A DNA stretch of 64,000 nt, taken from contig VBAX01000047.1 in NCBI GenBank assembly GCA_005883075.1, forward strand, positions 29,598 to 93,597, given 5' to 3'. The notes under the pieces are model-generated. The model did not search any database, was not told where the DNA came from, and was given only the letters and a program-made list of their open reading frames with translations. Every line of letters starts with the position of its first letter. Position 1 is the first letter of the stretch. Of the stretch, positions 13,873-60,495 are shown one piece after another. Made by a program: the position numbers and the translations under genes. Source of the DNA: Candidatus Bathyarchaeota archaeon (GTDB taxonomy: Archaea > Thermoproteota > Bathyarchaeia > 40CM-2-53-6).

Positions 13873-14082
13873 GAATCGCCCATTATCAGCCCTGAACTCG
13901 ATTCTGGAAACCCCCTATGAACTCTCCCGAGATTCGTTCGGAATTGTCGTCTTCTTTCCATTCTGATCCCAGCCTAAATCCTGCCCTGAATCGTGTGACT
14001 CGCCCAGAATTAGTGCCAGACAGGAAGTCGTTTCCAGAAAATAGGGGGTCTTAGCGACCGACCCTCGCGTCGCAAGAGCGGC
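13873..14082 (+). repeat. copy A of a 4-copy, ~215-bp non-coding intergenic repeat family (candidate ncRNA or MITE)
   Basis: Aligns over its full length with 29626-29842 in the same orientation and with 47166-47384 and 58719-58930 as reverse complements. Conserved blocks are GCCCTGAAT, CTCGCC, CCAGACAG.AA.TC.TTC, AAAATAGGGGGTC and CGCG.CGCAAG. Confidence 0.8.
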
Positions 14083-22585: not shown

Positions 22586-24625
22586 TCACATTGGATGTAT
22601 GTGGGACTCAGCACATGAGGCTGGGAAGGAACCGGTGGCAACGGGGGAGAAAACTTCAATCCGGTTGTTGCTCGTTCCACTGGAGGTTCCTGTATCGACC
22701 ACGTAGACATTCCCTGAACTGTCCACGGCCAGCCCGTTCGGATTCACGAGCTGGCCATTTGCAGACCCCATCATCCCGAAGGATGTGAGAAACGTGCCGT
22801 TGCTGGCGAACTCTTGGACTCGGTTATTGAAAGTGTCGGCCACGTAGACATTCCCAGCTGAGTCTAGGGCTAAGTGTCCAGGGACATTGAACTGCCCATT
22901 TCCGGGACCGGAAGATCCCCAGGAGATGAGGAATCCTCCCGAGCTGTTGAATTTCTCGATACGATTGTTCGATGAGTCGCTTACATACACGTTGCCTGAG
23001 GCGTCTACAACGATGCCAGTTGGATTGCTGAACTGGCCGTTAGCGGTCCCCAACGACCCCCAAGTCATGATGAAGTTTCCTAAACTGTCAAACTTTTGCA
23101 CTCGATTGCCCGAGTAATCTGTAACGTAGACGTTGTTTGAACTGTCTGTTGCGACACCGTATGGACCGTTGAACTGCCCGTTGCCCAATCCAAAGGATCC
23201 CCATGCTCTAGTGAAAGTACCGTTCGGAAGGAATTTTTCAATTCGGTTATTGGAATAATCTGAAACATAGACGCTACCACTGTGGTCGACGGCAACTCCA
23301 AAAGGACCGTCGAGCTGGCCGGCTGCATTCCCAGTCGCTCCCCACGCCAATAGGAAAGTTCCAGATGTGGAGAACACTTGTATTCGATTATTTAGTTCGT
23401 CAACAACATAGACGCGGCCCGAACTGTCCACGGCTCCATCATAAGGACTAGAGAACAGTCCGAATCTTGGATATGTGAGACTTGAAATGTACGATCCTGT
23501 GCTAGCTGAGAATTTCTGAACTCTAAAGTTGTTTGAATCACCAACATACAGGTTCTGCAGAGAATCAACGGCTACCCCAACCGGGTTGTTGAACTGTCCA
23601 GGCAATCCGCCCGGAGAGCCCCACATCAAGATGAGGTTGCCGGTCGTAGTGTCGAACCTTTCCACATCATTCCGCAGGTTGTCGGTGACATAGATGTTGG
23701 ATGCGTTGTCGACTGCCATCATCGCCGGTGCCGCAAGGCTGCCCCCGAAATTCAGCCCTCCCCACGTTAGGACAAGACTGCCCGTCTTGGTAAATTTAGT
23801 AATATTGTTCGACTTGGTGGCGCTGTCGCTCACGTATACGAATCCTGACGAATCCACCGCTATTCCATACGGACTCAGGAATTTGCCTTGACTCGTACCA
23901 AGCCCGCCGAAAGATCCAACGTATGTTCCATTATTCCTGAATATCTGAACACGTTGGTTTCCTTGATCTACCACGTATACGAAGCCGGTAGCGTTAACGC
24001 TAACCCCGAGCGGGGTCTTGAATTGGCCATTTCCGGACCCAGTCGAGCCCCATGAGGTGATGAAGTTCCCGGAAGAATCGAACTTCTGAATGTTGTTATT
24101 CACTGAATCAGAAACGTACACGTTTCCTTGGGGGTCCCGAGCGATTCCTTGTGGGGTGTTGAACCGTCCTGGCCCGGTCCCTTGGGATCCCCATGTGGTT
24201 ACGAGCGATCCATCCCTTGCTAGTTTGTAAACCGCGTAGTTCTTTGCATCGGCGATGAAGATGTTGCCTGCAGAATCTACTGCAACCCCGTTGGGGGCTA
24301 AGGGTCCCCCATACCCGCCCCATTGCCGAGAGTAGACAAAGGAGTTGGTTCCAGCAACCGTAGCCTGGGTTCGGCCTCCCGCTACCCCGGCCAGCACCAT
24401 GGTCCCCTGAGTGATTATCAGAATCGTCACGGAAAGGGACAACACAAAAAGAATCATAGACCGGAGGAAAATCGGCCTTTTTTCCGTATTAACTGCGCTA
24501 GAACGAGACGCGTAGTTCACTCGCGAATTGGGACGACGTTGTGAAGAGGAGTCCTTTCTGCCAGGCCAGAGCTCTGGGTTGGTCGGGGTTCCCCTCTGTG
24601 CAAAGGTCATGAGGAGAAGAAGCAT
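22586..24625 (-). CDS. NHL-repeat beta-propeller protein (about 13 repeats) with N-terminal signal anchor
   Basis: About 13 tandem 45-47-aa repeats of the form NNRIQKFxxxGxFxxxWGSxGxGNGQFxxPxGxAVDxxGNVYVxD. Likely real start at MILFVLSLSV (about 24460), a signal anchor. Confidence 0.85.
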   Translation of the reverse strand: MLLLLMTFAQRGTPTNPELWPGRKDSSSQRRPNSRVNYASRSSAVNTEKRPIFLRSMILFVLSLSVTILIITQGTMVLAGVAGGRTQATVAGTNSFVYSRQWGGYGGPLAPNGVAVDSAGNIFIADAKNYAVYKLARDGSLVTTWGSQGTGPGRFNTPQGIARDPQGNVYVSDSVNNNIQKFDSSGNFITSWGSTGSGNGQFKTPLGVSVNATGFVYVVDQGNQRVQIFRNNGTYVGSFGGLGTSQGKFLSPYGIAVDSSGFVYVSDSATKSNNITKFTKTGSLVLTWGGLNFGGSLAAPAMMAVDNASNIYVTDNLRNDVERFDTTTGNLILMWGSPGGLPGQFNNPVGVAVDSLQNLYVGDSNNFRVQKFSASTGSYISSLTYPRFGLFSSPYDGAVDSSGRVYVVDELNNRIQVFSTSGTFLLAWGATGNAAGQLDGPFGVAVDHSGSVYVSDYSNNRIEKFLPNGTFTRAWGSFGLGNGQFNGPYGVATDSSNNVYVTDYSGNRVQKFDSLGNFIMTWGSLGTANGQFSNPTGIVVDASGNVYVSDSSNNRIEKFNSSGGFLISWGSSGPGNGQFNVPGHLALDSAGNVYVADTFNNRVQEFASNGTFLTSFGMMGSANGQLVNPNGLAVDSSGNVYVVDTGTSSGTSNNRIEVFSPVATGSFPASCAESHIHPM

Positions 24626-29592: not shown

Positions 29593-29625
29593 GTCGCACC
29601 TTAATCGGGTTCCTTTCTAGCTTCT

Positions 29626-29842
29626 AAGCCCAAAGAGAAGCCAGATCGGGAATCTGGGACACCGTCAAATTCTCGCCTCCAAATTGTTCAGGAACTGACC
29701 TAAATTACACGTTAACTCGCTCTTTGATCAAAGCCCAAACCCTGCCCTGAATCGCAATATTCGCCCATTACCAATGCCAGACAGAAAATCTTCCCATCAA
29801 AAAATAGGGGGGTATTGCACAGAACATCTCACGACGCAAGTC
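29626..29842 (+). repeat. copy B of the ~215-bp intergenic repeat family
   Basis: Homologous to 13873-14082 in the same orientation. Lies between the convergent stops of the nitroreductase (+) and DUF35 (-) genes. Confidence 0.8.
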
Positions 29843-29845
29843 CGG

Positions 29846-30607
29846 CTATCCAGAGAGAGTGTCGCCAGGCTCGGTTTCAGAAGAGCTCTTAACCGCTTTC
29901 CGCCATTCTCTCGCCTTGTCCCCAAGCCTGCGAAGCAGCTTATCCTCTTCACGAGTGAGAAGTTCGCCTTTGCCAATCTTACTTCTTAGCGAGGATATCG
30001 TCATCTCATCCTCCTCTACCGGATATCCTGACTCTTCGATAGAATGGAGAAGCGACCTCGCCTGGTCATCCACCTTTCCCACATTCTGTCTCTCCGCTCT
30101 TCCACCCTCTACGGTTATCTTGCTTGGCACGGTTGAGATCGGTTTGAATGCGAGAATATCCGTGATAGCGCCTGTACGTTCTCCCAGGTTCTTGAGAGAT
30201 GGCGCTACTTTCATTCCGATCGATACGCTATCAGGATCCTCCGCAGCAAGCAAGTGGATTATTCCTCCCTTGACGCCTTCAAACTTCACGAGGCCCACTG
30301 TTACGGGCGAGTCGGTGTCAGAACCTGATCTGTTCCTATTGACACAAGTGAAACTGTAGACATAACCTGGCTTGTCGATTGGAAACTGGTCTTTCATCTC
30401 GATGAAACAGTCGGGGCAGTACATTCTGGCCGGAATGTAAGTGCTCTTGCACTTTGAGCATTTCGAGACTAGAAAGCGACCGTTATCCCGGAGTTCACGT
30501 CGAAACTCCTCCCCTGCAACCCCTGCAGTGTAGTGGTATTCCAGAGGTATGCTGTCCGTCCAGTGCCGAGCTTGACCGGGTTGAGCGAGTTTCTCTAAAA
30601 TTGGCAT
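29846..30607 (-). CDS. DUF35 OB-fold/zinc-ribbon protein with an about 90-aa charged C-terminal extension
   Basis: CSKCKS...CPDC rubredoxin-like ribbon followed by an OB fold. Extra C-terminal tail rich in E/K/R. Confidence 0.7.
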   Translation of the reverse strand: MPILEKLAQPGQARHWTDSIPLEYHYTAGVAGEEFRRELRDNGRFLVSKCSKCKSTYIPARMYCPDCFIEMKDQFPIDKPGYVYSFTCVNRNRSGSDTDSPVTVGLVKFEGVKGGIIHLLAAEDPDSVSIGMKVAPSLKNLGERTGAITDILAFKPISTVPSKITVEGGRAERQNVGKVDDQARSLLHSIEESGYPVEEDEMTISSLRSKIGKGELLTREEDKLLRRLGDKAREWRKAVKSSSETEPGDTLSG

Positions 30608-46683: not shown

Positions 46684-47165
46684 AAAACGTTAAGGCAACG
46701 TTTCTTGGTCCGTTTTCACATCTTCGCGTCCTCCTCGACGGAGTAGGTACTCCGAGAAACAAGTCACTTCGAGGCTGAGGCTCTGGTAACGACCAGCAAA
46801 TTGCCGGACTATGTCTGTCTTGTATGGAATACTAAGGGCAGGGATGCGGGGACTTGGCGACCTGGGAAGAACCTAGAGAACTGGACACTGACAATGAGGC
46901 TGTGATCAGCCTCTACGACGGCATCAAGAAAATACTGGAAAAACAGCCGAAGCCCAAGTCCAAGCCAAGCTCTGGCATCCCGAGAGAAGCAAGACACATC
47001 TTACGTTGCGGTCGAATCCTCAAGGTCGATATCGAACGGAAACTCATCGTTATTACTGTCATGAAAACGGACGGCGAGCTTCACCAGCTTCGAATAGAAG
47101 CCAACCAAGACTAACCGAACACCGGATCGGATCTAGGGATACTTTCGGAATACTCCGTTTCTCCC

Positions 47166-47384
47166 TCTCTTGTGACGCGAGGGTCGGTCGCTAAGACCCC
47201 CTATTTTCTAGAAAAGATTTCCTGTCTGGCATAGATAATCGGCGAGTCTCGCGATTCAGGGCACGATCCGGGCTTAGATGTGATCGCAAAAAACGGGAAG
47301 TCTAGCGCCATTCCCGAACGATTCAGGGGGCGAGATAGGGGTGTGGTCCCAGATTCGGGATCAGGGCTGATTTTGGGCGATCCA
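47166..47384 (-). repeat. copy C of the ~215-bp intergenic repeat family (reverse orientation)
   Basis: Its reverse complement aligns with 13873-14082, and the 3' half is nearly identical. Located downstream of the stop of the mutase gene. Confidence 0.8.
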
Positions 47385-47410: not shown

Positions 47411-48991
47411 TCACACGTCGCGCCTTACCCGGTATTCTCCGAAGGCGTCTCTTAGAACTTCGCTGATTTCACCGACGGTGCAGTTTGCCCGGACGGCGCT
47501 TAAGATGCGATTCACGAGATTCTCTTCGTGCTTCGCAGAACTGGAAAGGCGTCCAAGAGCATTTTTGACCAGCGCAGTATTTCTCGTTCCTTTCATCATC
47601 TTCAGCTGTCTTATCTGATCTCTCTCGAGCTTGGGGTCGATGCGCTGGATTTTTGGTCCACTGCTTCCCTCGGTAAACTTGTTGACTCCGACAATAATCG
47701 TTCGTCCTTCGTCAACAGATTTCTGGAACCTGTAAGCGCTTTCCTGTATCTCGCGATGGACAAATCCGGATTCTATCGCCTTTCTCGCGCCACCTAAATC
47801 TTCCACTTTCTCTAAGAGACGAGTCGCGTCGGCCTCAAGATCTCTTGTCAAGGATTCCAGATAGTAGCTACCGGCTAGTGGATCCGCCGTTTTGGTCACT
47901 CCTGATTCGTGGGCAATTATCTGCTGGGTACGCAAGGCAATTTGAACCGACTCTTCGGTTGGCAGAGAGAGTGCCTCGTCCCTGGAATTTGTATGCAGAG
48001 ATTGTGTTCCACCGAGAACTCCTGCAAGGGCTTGGATTGCGACCCGGACAATGTTGTTGTCAGGCTGTTGGGCGGTCAAAGTCTCACCACTTGTCTGGGT
48101 GTGAAATCGTAGCTTGCAGGATTCAGGATCCCGGGCTTTGAAACGGTCCTTCATGATCCGGGCCCAGATTCTACGCGCAGCTCTGAATTTCGCGATCTCC
48201 TCCAAGAAATCATTCCTGCAGGCAAAGAAGAAAGAAAGTTGGGGGGCGAACTGGTCTATCTTGAGCCCTCGTTCAAGAGCCGCCTTAACGTATTCGATCG
48301 CGTTTGCAAAACAAAAGCCTAGTTCCTGGATCGCGTTCGCGCCCGACTCGCGAATATGATAGCCACTGATGCTGATCGGGTGCCACCGGGGCATCTTGTA
48401 GGCGCAGTATTCTATGAGATCGACGGAGAGCTTTAGCGATGATTCTGGAGGATAGATGTAGGTATTCCTTGCGATGTACTCCTTCAGAATATCATTCTGT
48501 GTCGTTCCCGTTAACTTGTTCTGAGGGACCCCCTGTTCCATTCCAACCGCGACGTAGAGAGAAAGCAGGATTGGTGCGGTGGCGTTGATTGTCATGCTAG
48601 TGCTGACCTTTCCAAGGTCGATGCCCTCGAAGAGACGCCTCATGTCATAGACGCTACTTATTGCAACTCCCACTCTCCCAACTTCTCCAGCAGCCCTTGG
48701 ATAGTCTGAGTCGAGACCGAGCTGTGTTGGCAGGTCGAATGCTGTGCTGAGCCCGGTCTCACCGTGAGATATCAGATACTTGAAGCGGCGATTAGTTTCT
48801 TTGGCAGACCCGAAACCCGTGTATTGACGCATGGTCCAAAGCCGATCCCGATACATTCCATCGTAGATCCCACGCGTGTATGGGAACTGGCCCGGTTTCC
48901 CCAGTGACCTTGTCCAGTTCGGTGGAACATCCTTTTTCTCGTAGATTTTTTTGACGAGGATCCCAGAGTCTGTTGTTACAGGGTCGGTCAA
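47411..48991 (-). CDS. mcmA: methylmalonyl-CoA mutase, catalytic (large) subunit lacking the B12-binding domain
   Basis: MCM TIM-barrel with RQYTGFG (Tyr) and RNTYIYPP (Arg) signature residues. 526 aa, so no C-terminal B12 domain. Confidence 0.9.
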   Translation of the reverse strand: MTDPVTTDSGILVKKIYEKKDVPPNWTRSLGKPGQFPYTRGIYDGMYRDRLWTMRQYTGFGSAKETNRRFKYLISHGETGLSTAFDLPTQLGLDSDYPRAAGEVGRVGVAISSVYDMRRLFEGIDLGKVSTSMTINATAPILLSLYVAVGMEQGVPQNKLTGTTQNDILKEYIARNTYIYPPESSLKLSVDLIEYCAYKMPRWHPISISGYHIRESGANAIQELGFCFANAIEYVKAALERGLKIDQFAPQLSFFFACRNDFLEEIAKFRAARRIWARIMKDRFKARDPESCKLRFHTQTSGETLTAQQPDNNIVRVAIQALAGVLGGTQSLHTNSRDEALSLPTEESVQIALRTQQIIAHESGVTKTADPLAGSYYLESLTRDLEADATRLLEKVEDLGGARKAIESGFVHREIQESAYRFQKSVDEGRTIIVGVNKFTEGSSGPKIQRIDPKLERDQIRQLKMMKGTRNTALVKNALGRLSSSAKHEENLVNRILSAVRANCTVGEISEVLRDAFGEYRVRRDV

Positions 48992-49938: not shown

Positions 49939-51807
49939 GTGAAATTCTCAGTTCTGCTCTCGCCTCTAGAGCGTATTTCAAGATTCGGCGATGAAGGGCG
50001 TCAGGATAATGGAAAAATAGGAACCTACGGGCATCTTCTATTGTTTCGTGATCGTGTTTTGGCAAAGGGTTACTGGAAGAAAGTTCTAGACGAGATCAAA
50101 CAGGAAAGAAGGGCTCCACCAACCACCTTCGACAGGAAGCAACTTGCGAAGGTCAAGCAAGAGAGGGTCCGGTGGGAAACCAAGACGCTCAAACCGTGGA
50201 CCCGCGTTAGCCCTGAACAAAAGGAGGAATTCAGAAACCTATCCAATATTCCAGTGAAAAGAGTCTACACCCCAGAAGACGTATCACACCTAAACCAGTC
50301 CGAGGAGATCGGACTTCCAGGCGAGTATCCCTATGTCCGCGGGGTCTACCCGACGATGTACCGGGGACGACCGTGGACGATGCGCATGTTCTCCGGCTTC
50401 GGAACCCCGGAAGACACGAACAAACGTCTACACTACTTGCTGGAACATGGAGAGACTGGTCTGAGCATTGCATTCGACATGCCGACGCTCTACGGGTATG
50501 ACCCTGACAGTCAGCGGGCTGAGGGAGAGGTGGGACGCTGCGGTGTGTCGGTGGGCTCGTTAAAGGACATGGAGATTATTCTCGAAGGTATACCGTTGGA
50601 GAAGGTGAGTACTAGTATGACGATCAATGCTCCCGCGTCGGTTCTAACTGCGATGTATGTTGGCGTTGCTGAGAGACAGGGTCTGAAACCGAAGGAGCTT
50701 CGAGGGACAGTTCAAGCGGACATTCTCAAGGAGTACATCGCTCAGAAGGAGTGGGCTTTCCCACCTGAGGCGCATCTCAGAATCATCCGTGACATGATGG
50801 TGTATTGTACTAAAGAGATGCCGCAGTGGAACTACATCAGCATCAGCGGCTACCATATCCGTGAAGCAGGGTCCAGCGCAGTTCAGGAACTAGCGTTCAC
50901 GCTCGCCGATGGTTTCGCGTATGTTGACCTCGGAATCGAAGCAGGGCTCAAGGTCGAGGATTTCGCGCCCCGCCTTTCCTTCTTCTTTAACTGCGGGATG
51001 GACTTTTTCGAAGAGGTCGCAAAGTTCCGGGCTGCACGGCGAATCTGGGCAAGGGTGTTGAGAGACAAGTACAAGGTCAAAGACCCTAGATCACTCTTGT
51101 TGAGGACGCACGCCCAGAACTCTGGCGCATCTCTAACATGGCAGCAACCCCTCAACAATATTGTACGAACAACCATTGAGGCATTAGCAACGGTGCTTGG
51201 CGGGACCCAATCGCTTCATACCAATTCTTACGATGAGGCGTGGGCATTGCCCTCTGAAGCAGCGGCTACTGTTGCCCTGAGGACCCAGCAGATCATTGCG
51301 GAAGAGACTGGTGTCACAGACACTATCGATCCGCTGGCCGGATCGTACTATCTGGAATGGCTGACTGATGAGATGGAGGAACGAGCCTTCCAGTACTTCG
51401 ACAAGATAGAAAGAGCTGGCGGATTGTTGGACGCGATCAAGACCGGGTTCATTCAGAGAGAGATCGCTGAGAACTCCTACCGTTTCCAGCAGGAACTTGA
51501 GAGAGGGGACAGGGTTGTCGTTGGCGTGAACAAGTACCAGATCGAAGAGAAGAAGCCGATTGATACGTTGAAGATCAACGAAGAGGCACAACGACGCCAG
51601 GTCGCAAGGATAAACATGGTGCGGGAAACACGGGACAACAAGAAAGTTGAGCAAGCGTTAGATGAACTACGGAAGACATTCAAGGACGAGAAAGCGAACT
51701 CCATGTATCCTATGGTCAAAGCCGTCAAAGCCTACGCAACGCTAGGGGAGATCATGGATGTGGGACGGAAGATTTTCGGCGAATACAAGGAACCACCGAT
51801 TCTCTGA
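49939..51807 (+). CDS. second B12-dependent acyl-CoA mutase catalytic subunit, isobutyryl-CoA-mutase-like (Phe/Gln signature)
   Basis: Homologous along its length to the 47411-48991 mutase, but with RMFSGFG (Phe for Tyr) and QKEWAFPP (Gln for Arg). The true start is probably a TTG/GTG about 100-120 nt downstream of 49939. Confidence 0.85.
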
Positions 51808-53062: not shown

Positions 53063-53693
53063 TGCAGAACGAGTTCCCCGGTGCAAGCGGGACGCCACAT
53101 GAACGACATTTCGCCATTGCAGCAGCCACCACCGGTGCTTGTCCCGGTGCTGAGGGGGAAGGGTTGTACTGGAGGGTTGGTTGTGCCGCCGGAGCGTACT
53201 GAGTCTGTGATTGAAGGGTGGGAGAGTACCTTAGTGTCGGTTGAGTGTTCATCGCGGGCATGGAGGTTGGGACCATTCCCTTGCCGAAGAAGACTTTGAC
53301 GTGAGATCTGGTGAGATAGATGATCATGATGAGCCAGAAGACTAACGCGTAGCCTGCTTGGTACAGTCCGGTAAACGCGGCGTAGGCTGCGCCGAGGATC
53401 GAGAGCACCGTGAAGATCATTCCAAGGGTCCACGCCCAACCTCTTCCATGGAGAAAGCCGACCCCGGTCGCCAGCCATACGAGGCTGAAGAAGAGAAAGA
53501 CTCCACCGATAACGATCCCGACGGTACCGATCAGGGTTCCAACCGTGGGAAGAGTGGAGAATATGGCAGCCAAGCCGATGATAGCAAGGCTGACTAGAAG
53601 TCCAAGGACACCGATTAGGATCTGAATTATCGCGAGAAGTGTAATGCCGATTGGCCGGGAGGGCTTCTGCATCATGGAAAATCGAGTCTTCAC
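53040..53693 (-). CDS. membrane protein with C-terminal Q/P-rich linker and zinc ribbon (paralog 1 of 3)
   Basis: 4 TM helices, the shared HVKVFFGKG motif, and a C-terminal CRSCGVPLAPGNSFCTSCG. Confidence 0.55.
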   Translation of the reverse strand: MKTRFSMMQKPSRPIGITLLAIIQILIGVLGLLVSLAIIGLAAIFSTLPTVGTLIGTVGIVIGGVFLFFSLVWLATGVGFLHGRGWAWTLGMIFTVLSILGAAYAAFTGLYQAGYALVFWLIMIIYLTRSHVKVFFGKGMVPTSMPAMNTQPTLRYSPTLQSQTQYAPAAQPTLQYNPSPSAPGQAPVVAAAMAKCRSCGVPLAPGNSFCTSCGAKQ

Positions 53694-53810: not shown

Positions 53811-54344
53811 CTAGGGTGTCGAGGAACCCGTTCCTGGCACAGTAGAGCGTAATGCCATCGGGGTTCCCTTACCGAAGAAGACTTTGACGTGCGGTCTCAT
53901 TAGATAGTAGATTATCAGTAGCGAGATTATCAAAGAGAGGATACTACCGTAATTGCCACCAACCATCTGAAATACGTCGAGAACTATTCCAATGACACTC
54001 ACTATGATCCCTAGATTCCACGCCCATCTCTTTCCACCCAAGAACCCAACTCCGACGGCTAGATAGAGGATTCCTAGAATCAAGATTGCCGCGCCGAGGG
54101 CGATTATTAATGCCGATATGGTTCCTACGCCGAGCGAGGCCAGTCCGGGATAGCCAGCATTTGTTATAGCGTTTGTAATGTCAATAGAAGCGGATAGCGT
54201 ACCAAGGAGGAGTCCAAGTCCAATGAGCACTGCTCCGCTAAACAGAAACGCTATTGCTCCTAGAATTGCTAACACGGCGAGAACTGTTACACCGGTTGGT
54301 CGCGGTGGTTTCGGCTGCATGGTTGTTAGATACTCGCTCCGCAA
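53811..54344 (-). CDS. membrane protein paralog (2 of 3)
   Basis: Shares GKRWAWNLG...YYLMRPHVKVFFGKG with paralog 1. Likely start at MQPKPPRP. Confidence 0.55.
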   Translation of the reverse strand: MRSEYLTTMQPKPPRPTGVTVLAVLAILGAIAFLFSGAVLIGLGLLLGTLSASIDITNAITNAGYPGLASLGVGTISALIIALGAAILILGILYLAVGVGFLGGKRWAWNLGIIVSVIGIVLDVFQMVGGNYGSILSLIISLLIIYYLMRPHVKVFFGKGTPMALRSTVPGTGSSTP

Positions 54345-57437: not shown

Positions 57438-58688
57438 TTGGGGACGTCTGAGGAAGAAAACTTGCCCGGGAAGGCTGACGTTGTAATTGTGGGAGCGGGT
57501 ATAGCCGCTCTGGCACTGGCAGTAGAACTTCAGAAAAAAGGGATCTCGACAATCCTCCTTGAACGACAAAGGAGTCCTGAGGGCATTCCGCGTGGTCTGA
57601 CTTTCCAGCCGAATGGCTTGGCGGTTCTAGAAAGGCTTGGAGCACTTGGTCGGGCCAGAGAGGTTGGTTCTGCGTCCCAGATTCTCGAAGTGAAAAGCTG
57701 GGAGGGAGAAGTTCTGCTTGAAGCGGATTACAGCTTGTTGGATCACCCCCAGAACTATCTCCTGACGGCGAATGCTACTGAGCTGGAGCGGTTGCTCGTC
57801 TATGTGGCCGAGCAGGCCGGAGCGCAGGTTCTCTGGGGAACCTCCTTCCAAGAAATAGTCCTGAACGCGGGCCGGGCAGAAGGAGTAGTCTATGAAAGCG
57901 AGGGAGTTAGAGACGAGATCAGAGCACCTGTCGTAGTTGGAGCGGATGGTCCTCAATCGCATGTCCGAACTAGCCTTGGCGTAGAGGTGAAGACAAAGAA
58001 GTACCCTGATTCATTTCTAGTCGGACTCGTCGGTCCCGTTCCAGGCTTGGAGGGCAGGGCGCGCCAGTACCAGCATCCGGGAAAGATGCTTGGGATTATG
58101 CCTTCAGGACCTGAGGCGACCTATCTCTTCCATTGTGTGGGTCCGCGTAGTTTTGATAGTGTGAAGAAGGAGGGTTTGGGGTCTTTTAGGGCGGAGGTTG
58201 TTCAGGCGGCGCCGGAGATGGCGGACGCATTTACAGGTGTTGAAGCATGGACCAAGATGGCATACTTTACGCCCTCGTTCATACAAGTGAACAAGTGGGT
58301 GGGAAACGGGATCGCACTGCTCGGGGATTCAGCGCACACTTTTCATCCACACGCCGGACAGGGAGTAAACCTCGCACTGGAGGACGCAGTGGTGTTGGCC
58401 GAAGTGATCGAGAAATGTAAGATAGCGGGAGACTTCTCACAGACGGCATTGCTGGAATATCAGACCCAGCGGAAAGTGCGCGCTGACGTGATCGGGAAGC
58501 ATGCGAACTATACGGTGACGTATGCGCTGAGCGATAACTGGCTGATAAAACGGCTGAACCGGAGGGCGCTTCGGAAGTTGAACAAGGACAAGAAGCTGCA
58601 GAAGAAAGCGTTAGAGATCACTGCCGGGATCTTCGAGAAGAAGCCCGGACTGGTGACCTTGGCGAAGATTGGGGGAATACTACCCTGA
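57438..58688 (+). CDS. FAD-dependent monooxygenase (UbiH/geranylgeranyl-reductase-like)
   Basis: VVIVGAGIAALALA dinucleotide-binding motif, a DG motif, and GDSAHTFHPHAGQG. Confidence 0.75.
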   Translation: MGTSEEENLPGKADVVIVGAGIAALALAVELQKKGISTILLERQRSPEGIPRGLTFQPNGLAVLERLGALGRAREVGSASQILEVKSWEGEVLLEADYSLLDHPQNYLLTANATELERLLVYVAEQAGAQVLWGTSFQEIVLNAGRAEGVVYESEGVRDEIRAPVVVGADGPQSHVRTSLGVEVKTKKYPDSFLVGLVGPVPGLEGRARQYQHPGKMLGIMPSGPEATYLFHCVGPRSFDSVKKEGLGSFRAEVVQAAPEMADAFTGVEAWTKMAYFTPSFIQVNKWVGNGIALLGDSAHTFHPHAGQGVNLALEDAVVLAEVIEKCKIAGDFSQTALLEYQTQRKVRADVIGKHANYTVTYALSDNWLIKRLNRRALRKLNKDKKLQKKALEITAGIFEKKPGLVTLAKIGGILP

Positions 58689-58718
58689 ACCGCGGGCTCT
58701 TGAGCCTCCAGAGGGAAA

Positions 58719-58930
58719 CCGCTCTTGCGTCGCGAGGTGCGCTGTGCAAGACCCCCCCTTTTAGAGGAGAAAATTTTCTGTCTGGTAGTGATTATGGGCG
58801 AGACGGGCTATTCAGGGCTCAGACCAGGCTTGGATCAGGTGACGTTTTTACGAGTCGTCAAGAAGGATTTGCTATGCAATTAAGCGGACTGTCTACAGAT
58901 TCGAGATCAGGGCTTGAAATGGGCGAATCC
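58719..58930 (-). repeat. copy D of the ~215-bp intergenic repeat family (reverse orientation)
   Basis: Its reverse complement aligns with copies A and B. Lies between the convergent stops of the monooxygenase (+) and surface-protein (-) genes. Confidence 0.8.
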
Positions 58931-58962
58931 ACGGCTAGAAGCGCGTCGCATGTTGGATTGTC

Positions 58963-60495
58963 TCACTTGTCATCCTTTTCCTTCGCTACCTGATCCTTAA
59001 CCGACTTGAAGAAGTCCGTGCTCTCGATTCGTCCAGCTTCCGACCGGACAGCGTCCAAGTCAATTTTCAACCTGGCATGTGTTACCTTGCGACGTCTGAA
59101 CGCGAAGAATACAGCAACTAGTAGCAAGGCTAGTAGGGCGGCTATTATACCGAAATAATAGAGCGGGAAAGAAGCACTCCCCCCAGACGCATTCTGAACA
59201 GTGATGGCTCGCGTCGCAGAGCCAGTGTTGGGAGGCGTCGGCGAGTCTGATGCCGTGACAACCAGGGACCAGAGCCCACCAGTGTCCGAAGGTCGCACTG
59301 TATATGTTCCTATCCATAATCTCAGGGATGTGTCGAAAACAACCGGAACAGTATCGTTGATCGTGGGCGTCCCGCTGTAGAGTAAGTAAGCTTTCACAGT
59401 GCCCGGCTGGAAAACCGTACCGTCAGGATACGTGACGTTCGCATTGAAGGTAAGCTGTTGACCCACAGCGATGGTAGAGTTAGTGGTTACAATGACAGTT
59501 AGAGGGATAGTTGCTAGCAGCGGGGCGGTGGAGACTATTGTTCCGGGACCATTGTTCCCGTAAGCGTCGCTATAGGCATGTCCCCCCAAGCTTGCAGTCC
59601 ACGTCCCGGTCTGATTATCCAACGACGTCTGGTAAGACGCATCGAAAGTCTGAGACGCACTATCATATGTCGCCGTCAAAGTGACGGTGTTACCAGGCCC
59701 AGCCAAGTTTAGGAGAGCGACTCCTGTCGAGGGAATGGACCCATCTGGATAATTGGGCTGAAAGAAGAAACTCATCGTCTCCGTCCTCTGGTAGACTGAT
59801 TTGACGGACGTGATCGAGCTAACGATCATAATCGCAGGTCCCAGCGAGAAAGGTTGCGAATCAGCCGGATTCTTGACAGTGCTTGTCCCGGTCAAGGTAA
59901 CAATGTAAGTGTCTATTGTGGCGTTTCTTGGGGTCTTCCAGCTTGTAGCCACGATCCCCGTGCCCGTCGCTGGTACGTTTTGGGAAAAGACGAGCGTTGA
60001 GGTGCTCTGGGTCCTGATGGTTACTGTAACACTTTCTGACGCGCTGTATCCGCTTGCCTGTATGAGCACAGTTTGCGTTCTCTGATATGAGGAACTATCC
60101 GTGATGGTGAGTATGAACGAGGTCCCAGCTATGCTTGGCGATGCGGTGGGCCATAGCTCATCGACCTTGGCATTGTACTGGCCGACTAGCGTGTTCGATC
60201 CTTGGAATGAAGGACTTGGGTAGACAACTATCAGGGTAAACTTGTCTTGGCCTGGTGCGGTCGTATAGTTCGCCAGAGTTTGAGCGGTCTTCCCTGCTGG
60301 ATCGGTTACGGAGAACCTGAACCTGTATTGGGTGTTGGGAACGGCACTATTTGCAGATAGGACAAGGCTGACCGTGTTCCCTTCCGATGTCGCTGCCGGA
60401 ACGGAGTTCAGAGAGAATGGCGGGTCAGCGTGAACCATTGGGACTATATTGATCGATAGAAGAGGGACAAAGACGACGAGGGCAAGCAGAAGCAT
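58963..60495 (-). CDS. Thr/Ser-rich cell-surface (S-layer-like) glycoprotein candidate with C-terminal TM anchor
   Basis: Signal peptide, many N-x-S/T sequons and Ig-like repeats. The C-terminus is a TM helix (IIAALLALLLVAVFFAF) followed by an RRRK tail. Confidence 0.6.
   Translation of the reverse strand: MLLLALVVFVPLLSINIVPMVHADPPFSLNSVPAATSEGNTVSLVLSANSAVPNTQYRFRFSVTDPAGKTAQTLANYTTAPGQDKFTLIVVYPSPSFQGSNTLVGQYNAKVDELWPTASPSIAGTSFILTITDSSSYQRTQTVLIQASGYSASESVTVTIRTQSTSTLVFSQNVPATGTGIVATSWKTPRNATIDTYIVTLTGTSTVKNPADSQPFSLGPAIMIVSSITSVKSVYQRTETMSFFFQPNYPDGSIPSTGVALLNLAGPGNTVTLTATYDSASQTFDASYQTSLDNQTGTWTASLGGHAYSDAYGNNGPGTIVSTAPLLATIPLTVIVTTNSTIAVGQQLTFNANVTYPDGTVFQPGTVKAYLLYSGTPTINDTVPVVFDTSLRLWIGTYTVRPSDTGGLWSLVVTASDSPTPPNTGSATRAITVQNASGGSASFPLYYFGIIAALLALLLVAVFFAFRRRKVTHARLKIDLDAVRSEAGRIESTDFFKSVKDQVAKEKDDK

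Follow-up and report, generated by a model that had tools for sequence, protein, structure and literature searches.

A candidate mobile, non-coding repeat of about 245 bp in soil Bathyarchaeia, examined at a copy between convergent genes

Repeat copy D occupies positions 58718-58929 (+) of the window, the whole 64,000-nt stretch of Candidatus Bathyarchaeota archaeon DNA that was analysed. It is probably one unit of a ~245-bp, non-coding interspersed repeat without terminal inverted repeats, which behaves as non-autonomous mobile DNA and has spread by recombination at its 3' arm and by collapse of dimers. As judged from alignments, the family appears to be selfish repeated DNA that spreads by joining onto older copies and overwriting them.

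Copy D matches positions 1-220 of the profile model of the family (nhmmer 171.5 bits, E=3.7e-51), and alignments of the copies support it. It lies, as an earlier note on this DNA had stated, between two convergent genes. These encode a FAD-dependent oxidoreductase (57438-58688, +; PF01494, E=4e-43) and a 510-aa protein (58963-60495, -), called MG2-like from a sub-threshold MG2 match. The whole 274-nt spacer between the two stop codons (58689-58962) is the insertion footprint and comprises the element and site-specific flanks. The MG2-like gene is itself present or absent among relatives. In contigs L138 and L144 the oxidoreductase gene and the element are followed directly by an MFS transporter gene, with no MG2-like gene, and L063 has neither element nor MG2-like gene.

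Three further copies are present in the window. Copy A (13873-14082, -) lies between two co-oriented genes and has a syntenic copy in L030. Copy B (29623-29846, -) starts at the stop codon of a ChsH2-like gene, lies between convergent genes, and has syntenic copies in L019 and L054. Copy C (47163-47383, +), also between convergent genes, is a chimeric monomer; L020 and L176 have a dimer at this site. The orientation of D is that of C and opposite to that of A and B. The core pattern CTGTCTGG-N11-GGCGA-N8-ATTCAGGGC has exactly four matches in the window (13983-14023 and 29744-29784 on the reverse strand, 47222-47262 and 58778-58818 on the forward strand), compared to 0.00 expected from 100 shuffles, which bears out the earlier count of D as the fourth copy. 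The distal-arm string of D, GATTCGAGATCAGGGCTTGAAATGGGCGAATCC at 58898-58930, has counterparts in C (47353-47384) and A (13875-13906, reverse complement), and an arm pattern matches the same four elements (0.06 expected). Copies A to D align across about 210-225 nt at ~70% identity, so the family exceeds the core of about 110 bp, and the unit reaches 22-25 nt further 5' to a total of ~245 nt. The earlier proposal that the distal arm belongs to a longer family therefore stands; the arm is among the best-conserved parts of the family in alignments of 56, and then 187, copies.

Other features of the window adjoin these copies or are repetitive in their own right. Exactly at the 5' boundary of copy B (window 29840-29845), L054 has 2.27 kb of extra DNA (L054 1280-3546) with coding sequence for three proteins, one of 323 aa with zinc ribbons at its C-terminus, one of 180 aa, and a zinc-ribbon protein of 121 aa; L019 too loses similarity to the window at this boundary. 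Upstream of copy C, 480 nt (46684-47163) between a GNAT acetyltransferase gene and the element are without a called gene. Just upstream of C, the sequence at ~47110-47136 (CCGGATCGGATCTAGGGATACTTT) looks like the decayed arm of an older unit, and similar remnants precede many single copies. A 679-aa ORF at 22586-24625 (-) contains direct repeats spaced at multiples of 141 nt (47 codons), and its product is probably built of tandem 47-residue repeats. The segments 48319-48396 and 50816-50893 form a 78-nt inverted repeat (74% complementary) in or near a methylmalonyl-CoA mutase gene (47411-48991, -) and a 622-aa ORF (49939-51807, +); the two arms are perhaps paralogous coding segments on opposite strands. 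A 63-nt direct repeat (53276-53338 and 53864-53926, 79% identity, 588 nt apart) lies in two adjacent small ORFs on the reverse strand, which are probably tandem paralogues.

The family unit consists, from 5' to 3', of a variable extension, ACCAC, the P1 sequence, a C-run, the core, a variable stretch, and the 3' arm. The extension is 22-25 nt long and falls into two main classes; class I reads CGCGAATCAGAGTGTTCCCTC.... P1 follows ACCAC directly and is an imperfect hairpin, TCTTGC-GTC-GCGAGA in the family and TCTTGC-GTC-GCGAGG in D (58723-58737, +), where pair counts identify a conserved T.G position. The C-run of D (CCCCCCC; 58752-58758, +) is a conserved family block with nearly invariant alignment columns. 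Invariant blocks of the core are CTGTCTGG, GGCGA, and ATTCAGGGC; the first (58778-58785, + in D) is unchanged in 56/56 copies. All three were fixed by the retrieval pattern, so copies retrieved with it are in part bound to show them unchanged. Two modules are doubled in direct orientation, X (TGATWATGGGCGA) and Y (GATTC..CAGGGC), in the order X-7 nt-Y in the core and Y'-X in the arm. In D, the core copy of X is TGATTATGGGCGA (58789-58801, +), which includes the invariant GGCGA and from which ATGGGCGA recurs exactly at 58919-58926. The invariant core copy of Y, ATTCAGGGC (58810-58818, +), contains TCAGGGCT, which recurs exactly at 58907-58914. The stretch between core and arm is variable and carries subtype-specific indels of 10-11 nt. 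The 3' arm of the family is CAGATTCGAGATCAGGGCTGATAATGGGCGATTT, and beyond it similarity ends abruptly in unrelated sequence. The arm of D (58896-58929, +), which is the distal arm of the earlier note, reads CAGATTCGAGATCAGGGC-TTGAAATGGGCGA-ATC in the Y'-X order and is the putative recombination site.

No inverted repeat of at least 8 nt was found in 58689-58962, so D is without terminal inverted repeats, and in the consensus of 56 copies the two ends show no complementarity to each other. A coding family was rejected because an open frame crosses the element in just 28% of copies and lengths are evenly spread modulo 3. Bacterial-type promoters and terminators were sought in D and none was relevant; upstream of the copies there is no conserved promoter.

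An exact-pattern scan with one genome per species placed 55 of 58 matches in eight soil MAGs labelled Bathyarchaeota or Crenarchaeota; the remaining three were bacterial, with different spacing and no further similarity, at about chance level. At least 119 further contigs matched in a metagenome scan, and viral contigs contained neither the core nor the arm pattern. A profile built from 56 aligned copies then picked out 228 copies in the fetched DNA (187 sequences, 1.29 Mb). Taken together, these scans describe a genuine, lineage-restricted family. The window is syntenic with contigs of the soil MAGs at 80-91% nucleotide identity, and the best alignment of any fetched sequence to it does not exceed 93%. 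As far as these scans reach, the family appears confined to one clade of soil Bathyarchaeia. With 4 copies per 64 kb in the window, genomes probably hold tens to over a hundred copies each. A literature search found no such element described in Bathyarchaeia.

Presence or absence at orthologous sites is informative for mobility. Orthologues of the oxidoreductase were found, their contigs were fetched, and the spacers were compared. Four contigs (L059-L062), with 82-89% protein identity, have an empty site, with only 15-16 nt from one stop codon to the other. In the window and four closer relatives (L064-L067; 90-91% identity) the spacer is 274-310 nt long with an element of about 220 nt, and each of these filled sites carries a different element subtype. 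L138 and L144 also retain an element, and L063 has none. The filled state was taken as derived because the empty state is found in more distant relatives. By this comparison, an element evidently inserted into what was a 16-bp spacer separating the convergent oxidoreductase and MG2-like genes, on the branch that leads to the window. The presence/absence polymorphism that the earlier note had proposed as a sign of mobility was thus found at D; an unvarying element at syntenic sites in all relatives, which would have counted against mobility, was not. Copies A, B, and C do lie at syntenic sites in other species, but sites vary in monomer or dimer state and in subtype. No clean target-site duplication was seen between empty and filled D sites; on either side of the element the filled site has 30-55 nt of additional site-specific sequence, which lies beyond the model proposed below. 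At the filled sites of L064-L067 (L066 2127-2165) the oxidoreductase stop codon lies inside a 10-bp inverted repeat, TAGATAGGGG...CCCCTATCTA, whose second arm is missing from the empty sites.

Copy D itself is a mosaic. Its body (58723-58912, +) has high identity to non-orthologous loci and low identity to the orthologous site: it is 93-94% identical to L131 and L145 at unrelated loci (177/190 and 178/190) but 54-61% identical to the orthologous-site copies L065 and L066 (104/194 and 119/200). The ends have the opposite affinity. The arm tail (58913-58929) is 82-88% identical to L065/L066 and 71-76% to L131/L145, and for the 3' flank the values are 58-67% and 27-32%. The 5' extension (58696-58722, +; class II, ...CCAGAGGGAAACCGC) likewise follows the orthologous-site copies and not the donor subtype. 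These identities of body and ends indicate that a resident element was overwritten by another family member. The body was evidently replaced later by a different member, with breakpoints at P1 on the left and inside the arm on the right; what is left of the resident copy is its 5' extension and arm tail, together with the flanks.

Tandem copies show how units are added. The census includes 33 head-to-tail pairs and one trimer, and in 30 of the 33 pairs the 20-26 nt between profile matches are the 5' extension of the second unit. Downstream units have a median best identity to a non-orthologous copy of 0.92, with 11/27 at 95% or more; the corresponding figures are 0.74 and 0/24 for upstream units, and the median is 0.81 for single copies. 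By this measure the downstream unit of a pair is the younger one. Copies of the "type-3" subfamily, present in two species at no fewer than nine loci whose flanks are unrelated, share 97-99% identity. Six type-3 dimers with unrelated flanks were compared by mean pairwise identity between loci. Identity was 0.3-0.7 across unit 1 and 0.77 in the first half of arm 1, rose to 0.97 from GATAATAAGCGATTT on, stayed at 0.88-1.0 up to the middle of arm 2, and fell past that point to 0.49 and then to 0.13-0.37 in the flanks. On this identity profile, new units evidently sit in head-to-tail order, precisely at the 3' ends of resident ones, and the newly arrived DNA is evidently exactly one period, from mid-arm to mid-arm and in register. 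Exactly such a pattern would result if a unit-length circle, or a tandem donor, underwent one crossover with a resident arm.

Many orthologous sites differ by one unit, as monomer and dimer. At the site downstream of radA, the monomers of L007 and L027 belong to different subtypes, and L035 has a dimer, in which the type-3 unit sits exactly between ...GCGATTT and the shared 3' flank; flank sequence is not duplicated at this insertion. The 5' part of the monomer at window copy C matches the first unit of the L020 dimer and its 3' part matches the second, and L131 is a chimeric monomer that relates to the L043 dimer likewise. Some monomers are thus, to judge by these alignments, chimeras of the two units of a dimer. 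A 167-nt indel between the 96% identical contigs L127 (2114-2280) and L095, ~110 nt downstream of a repeat copy, is unlike the repeat.

The events described above are documented by comparative sequence, and from them we infer a circular intermediate and a role for the invariant blocks. A one-unit circle, or a tandem donor, would recombine with the 3' arm of a resident copy, with the crossover near GATCAGGGCTGA. Recombination between the two arms of a dimer would release a unit circle again, and recombination at P1 or at CTGTCTGG...ATTCAGGGC would collapse dimers to chimeric monomers. Such collapse would overwrite the resident copy, as at D, leaving resident ends and an imported body. The invariant blocks may be recognition or homology sequences for recombination and not parts of an RNA fold. 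Naive spacers at gene ends would be entered occasionally. The activity in trans might be that of a site-specific recombinase or of the host's homologous recombination. Against this explanation, arms of ~35 nt are short for ordinary homologous recombination, and internal blocks that are invariant across subtypes only ~70% alike could reflect a host function and not mobility. A bolder version, which we regard as speculative and rather unlikely, is that the family is an archaeal mobile element of a new class: a "recombination cassette" without genes, excised from dimers as one-unit circles and re-inserted at the 3' arms of resident copies. The invariant blocks would then serve as recognition sequences for a dedicated trans-acting recombinase, either site-specific or RNA-guided, and copies would be replaced genome-wide and among related species with no terminal inverted repeats and no duplication of the target.

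Genomic context was counted after orthologous sites had been collapsed to 59 independent ones. These comprise 24 convergent, 6 divergent, 19 tandem co-oriented, and 10 tandem opposed sites. Convergent intergenic sites exceed divergent ones (24 vs 6, p=0.0014), so the family favours gene 3' ends. Among tandem genes, the difference between co-oriented and opposed elements is not significant (19 vs 10, p=0.14), and an apparent orientation bias among the first 67 copies was no longer significant when orthologous sites were counted once. The median distance after a co-oriented stop codon is 72 nt. Neighbouring copies have the same orientation in 12 cases and opposite orientation in 6. No fixed target motif was found at the left end; T reaches just 30-38% at -27 to -19 upstream of 138 single copies, a weak enrichment, and the ATTT before tandem copies is the arm of the preceding unit.

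A partner gene was sought near the copies. Neighbour proteins were clustered twice across 1.29 Mb, and no recurrent protein family, transposase, or recombinase was found next to the copies; recurrent neighbours were merely housekeeping genes (radA, thiolase, threonine synthase, ABC ATPases, and orc1/cdc6). No integrase was seen near them either. An apparent protein "family" overlapping the elements consisted of spurious ORFs that read through the repeat itself. One orc1/cdc6-like gene (L006 723-1970, -; named by sequence only) has a 424-nt upstream spacer that includes a motif, CTTCCAGTGGAAT (L006 2003-2015), which we take to resemble an archaeal origin-recognition box. Half of the spacer is taken up by a repeat copy ~90 nt from this motif, and nine orthologous contigs are arranged likewise; the repeat may have inserted into a replication origin. 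A loose resemblance of the C-run/dyad region of the repeat to such a box was set aside once a proper box-like sequence had been seen elsewhere in L006.

The elements could be a structured ncRNA or a cis-acting 3'-UTR element that is transcribed with the upstream gene, kept by selection, and multi-copy through use by many genes. The preference for gene 3' ends, at the median distance given above, is in line with this, as are the syntenic sites of A, B, and C across species and the invariance of some blocks. The conserved T.G position of P1 could form a pair on the element strand only, and most of its variants preserve pairing. About 91% of cells in P1 are paired, with no excess over shuffles; P1 is plausible as a small hairpin, with pairing not above the level expected from column composition. 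The arm can form a hairpin, ATCA-GGGC-TGAT, with an outer stem that is not conserved (type-3 copies, for example, have TTTTCAAG). Tests for a fold were negative or neutral. Rfam gave no match at the gathering score over the window and none at E<=10 over 58600-59050. The RNAalifold consensus was -3.9 kcal/mol without a compensatory pair. For 28 copies the MFE z-score averaged +0.38 (element strand) and +0.28 (reverse strand), and for D it was +1.23 and +1.71. When pairing probability was averaged over 155 non-redundant copies, no column pair reached 0.25. A helix scan of the alignment did not support an RNA fold. In a separate pair-count test, the three best candidate helices had 92.0% of cells paired compared to 91.6% in shuffles, with a covariation score of 0.215 compared to 0.213. 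The lack of a significant orientation bias in tandem genes and of a conserved upstream promoter, and the swapping of copies at one site between subtypes, also count against an RNA. A tRNA-derived element was rejected because ARAGORN found no tRNA gene in the window. The alternative that the earlier note had raised, an ncRNA in place of a mobile element, thus finds no support in Rfam or in five structure tests, and we consider it improbable.

REP/BIME elements bind gyrase and IHF in enterobacteria. The archaeal repeat could likewise be a composite DNA site, homogenised by gene conversion, that binds a nucleoid protein, a termination or replication factor, or another chromosomal protein. Several blocks of 5-9 nt are invariant across all subtypes and two modules are directly repeated, which would suit protein binding, as would gene-end placement at the high copy number seen in the window; subtype variants look species-specific, suggesting concerted evolution. 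We nevertheless assign this explanation a low probability. The D site is empty in related genomes without apparent consequence, upstream units of dimers decay and lose the ATTCAGGGC block, and the exact addition of one unit is a property of mobile DNA. A host role is compatible with the mobile repeat as a later domestication, with a binding protein that is hypothetical.

IS200/IS605-derived palindrome-associated elements (PATE) and TnpB omega-RNA regions have subterminal hairpins, a sharp right end, and neither inverted repeats nor target duplication. The family resembles them in these features, and a deletion derivative of an RNA-guided transposon (IS200/IS605 with TnpB omega-RNA, or IS110 with bridge RNA), mobilised in trans and with the conserved blocks as RNA scaffold, was considered. 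In its favour are small hairpins close to both ends (P1 at ~25 nt from the left, the other at ~12 nt from the right), the recurrence of modules X and Y in core and end, and the tendency of neighbours to share an orientation. However, these hairpins are weak and dissimilar, P1 (TCTTGC/GCGAGA) being unrelated to the arm hairpin, and the fold evidence is negative where omega-RNAs and bridge RNAs are strongly structured. No TnpA-like or DEDD-type gene was found near any copy in 1.29 Mb, and a zinc-ribbon screen for TnpB-like proteins near copies found none; no fixed 4-5-nt target motif was evident next to the left end. Nor is the switch of orientation in the window explained by a replication origin, as GC skew is weak and there is no orc1/cdc6 gene between copies B and C. 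We regard such a derivative as quite improbable. Chance similarity or assembly artefact has next to no probability, given four matches with none expected by shuffling and hundreds of copies in assemblies that several projects made independently.

By their defining features, and with no Rfam match, the repeats are not classical MITEs, REPs, or IS200/IS605 derivatives. Archaeal hosts of MITEs include Sulfolobus, Halobacterium, Haloquadratum, and Desulfurococcus, besides others that are not named (PMC10969869). Like MITEs, the family is small, non-autonomous, multi-copy, intergenic, and polymorphic in presence or absence between relatives; at ~245 nt and 228 copies it is short, non-coding, and repeated, with no transposase gene. 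Unlike them, it has neither terminal inverted repeats nor target-site duplication, and no recognisable parent insertion sequence or transposase-like neighbour was seen in the 1.29 Mb around the copies. REPs are imperfect palindromes of 20-40 nt that are associated with RAYT (Y1) transposases. REP/BIME elements share with the archaeal family high copy number, extragenic location, clustering, and placement at gene 3' ends and between convergent genes, but the archaeal unit is ~245 nt long and not palindromic, and D is without an inverted repeat.

Integron gene cassettes carry attC, an imperfect palindrome that folds as a single strand, and depend on an integrase and an attI platform. The proposed mechanism would resemble them in that a unit circle recombines at a short end site and builds head-to-tail arrays. 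The archaeal units differ in being gene-less, the arm is not an attC-like palindrome (no inverted repeat, weak pairing), and additions occur at the 3' end of single dispersed copies and not at one attI site. BOX (of Streptococcus pneumoniae), ERIC, and RUP are alike in being non-coding mosaics of a few hundred bases with many intergenic copies, clustered or inserted side by side, with no adjacent transposase. Clustering of the pneumococcal repeats has been reviewed (PMC10969869). BOX belongs to another domain of life, has no sequence relation to the archaeal family, and is predicted to fold stably, which the archaeal family is not. To our knowledge, BOX has not been described as adding whole units strictly head-to-tail in a fixed register. 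By analogy, the archaeal family would work most like these bacterial mosaic intergenic repeats, with a mode of addition reminiscent of cassette integration.

Mobile DNA of uncultured archaea is poorly charted. The family described here marks gene 3' ends, and intergenic regions with it differ between close relatives. Because it is abundant and makes these regions variable, it affects assembly, binning, and annotation of these soil genomes. Addition of single units and replacement of copies provide a tractable sequence signature of recombination activity. If a dedicated enzyme exists, it would represent a new site-specific system from an uncultured lineage.
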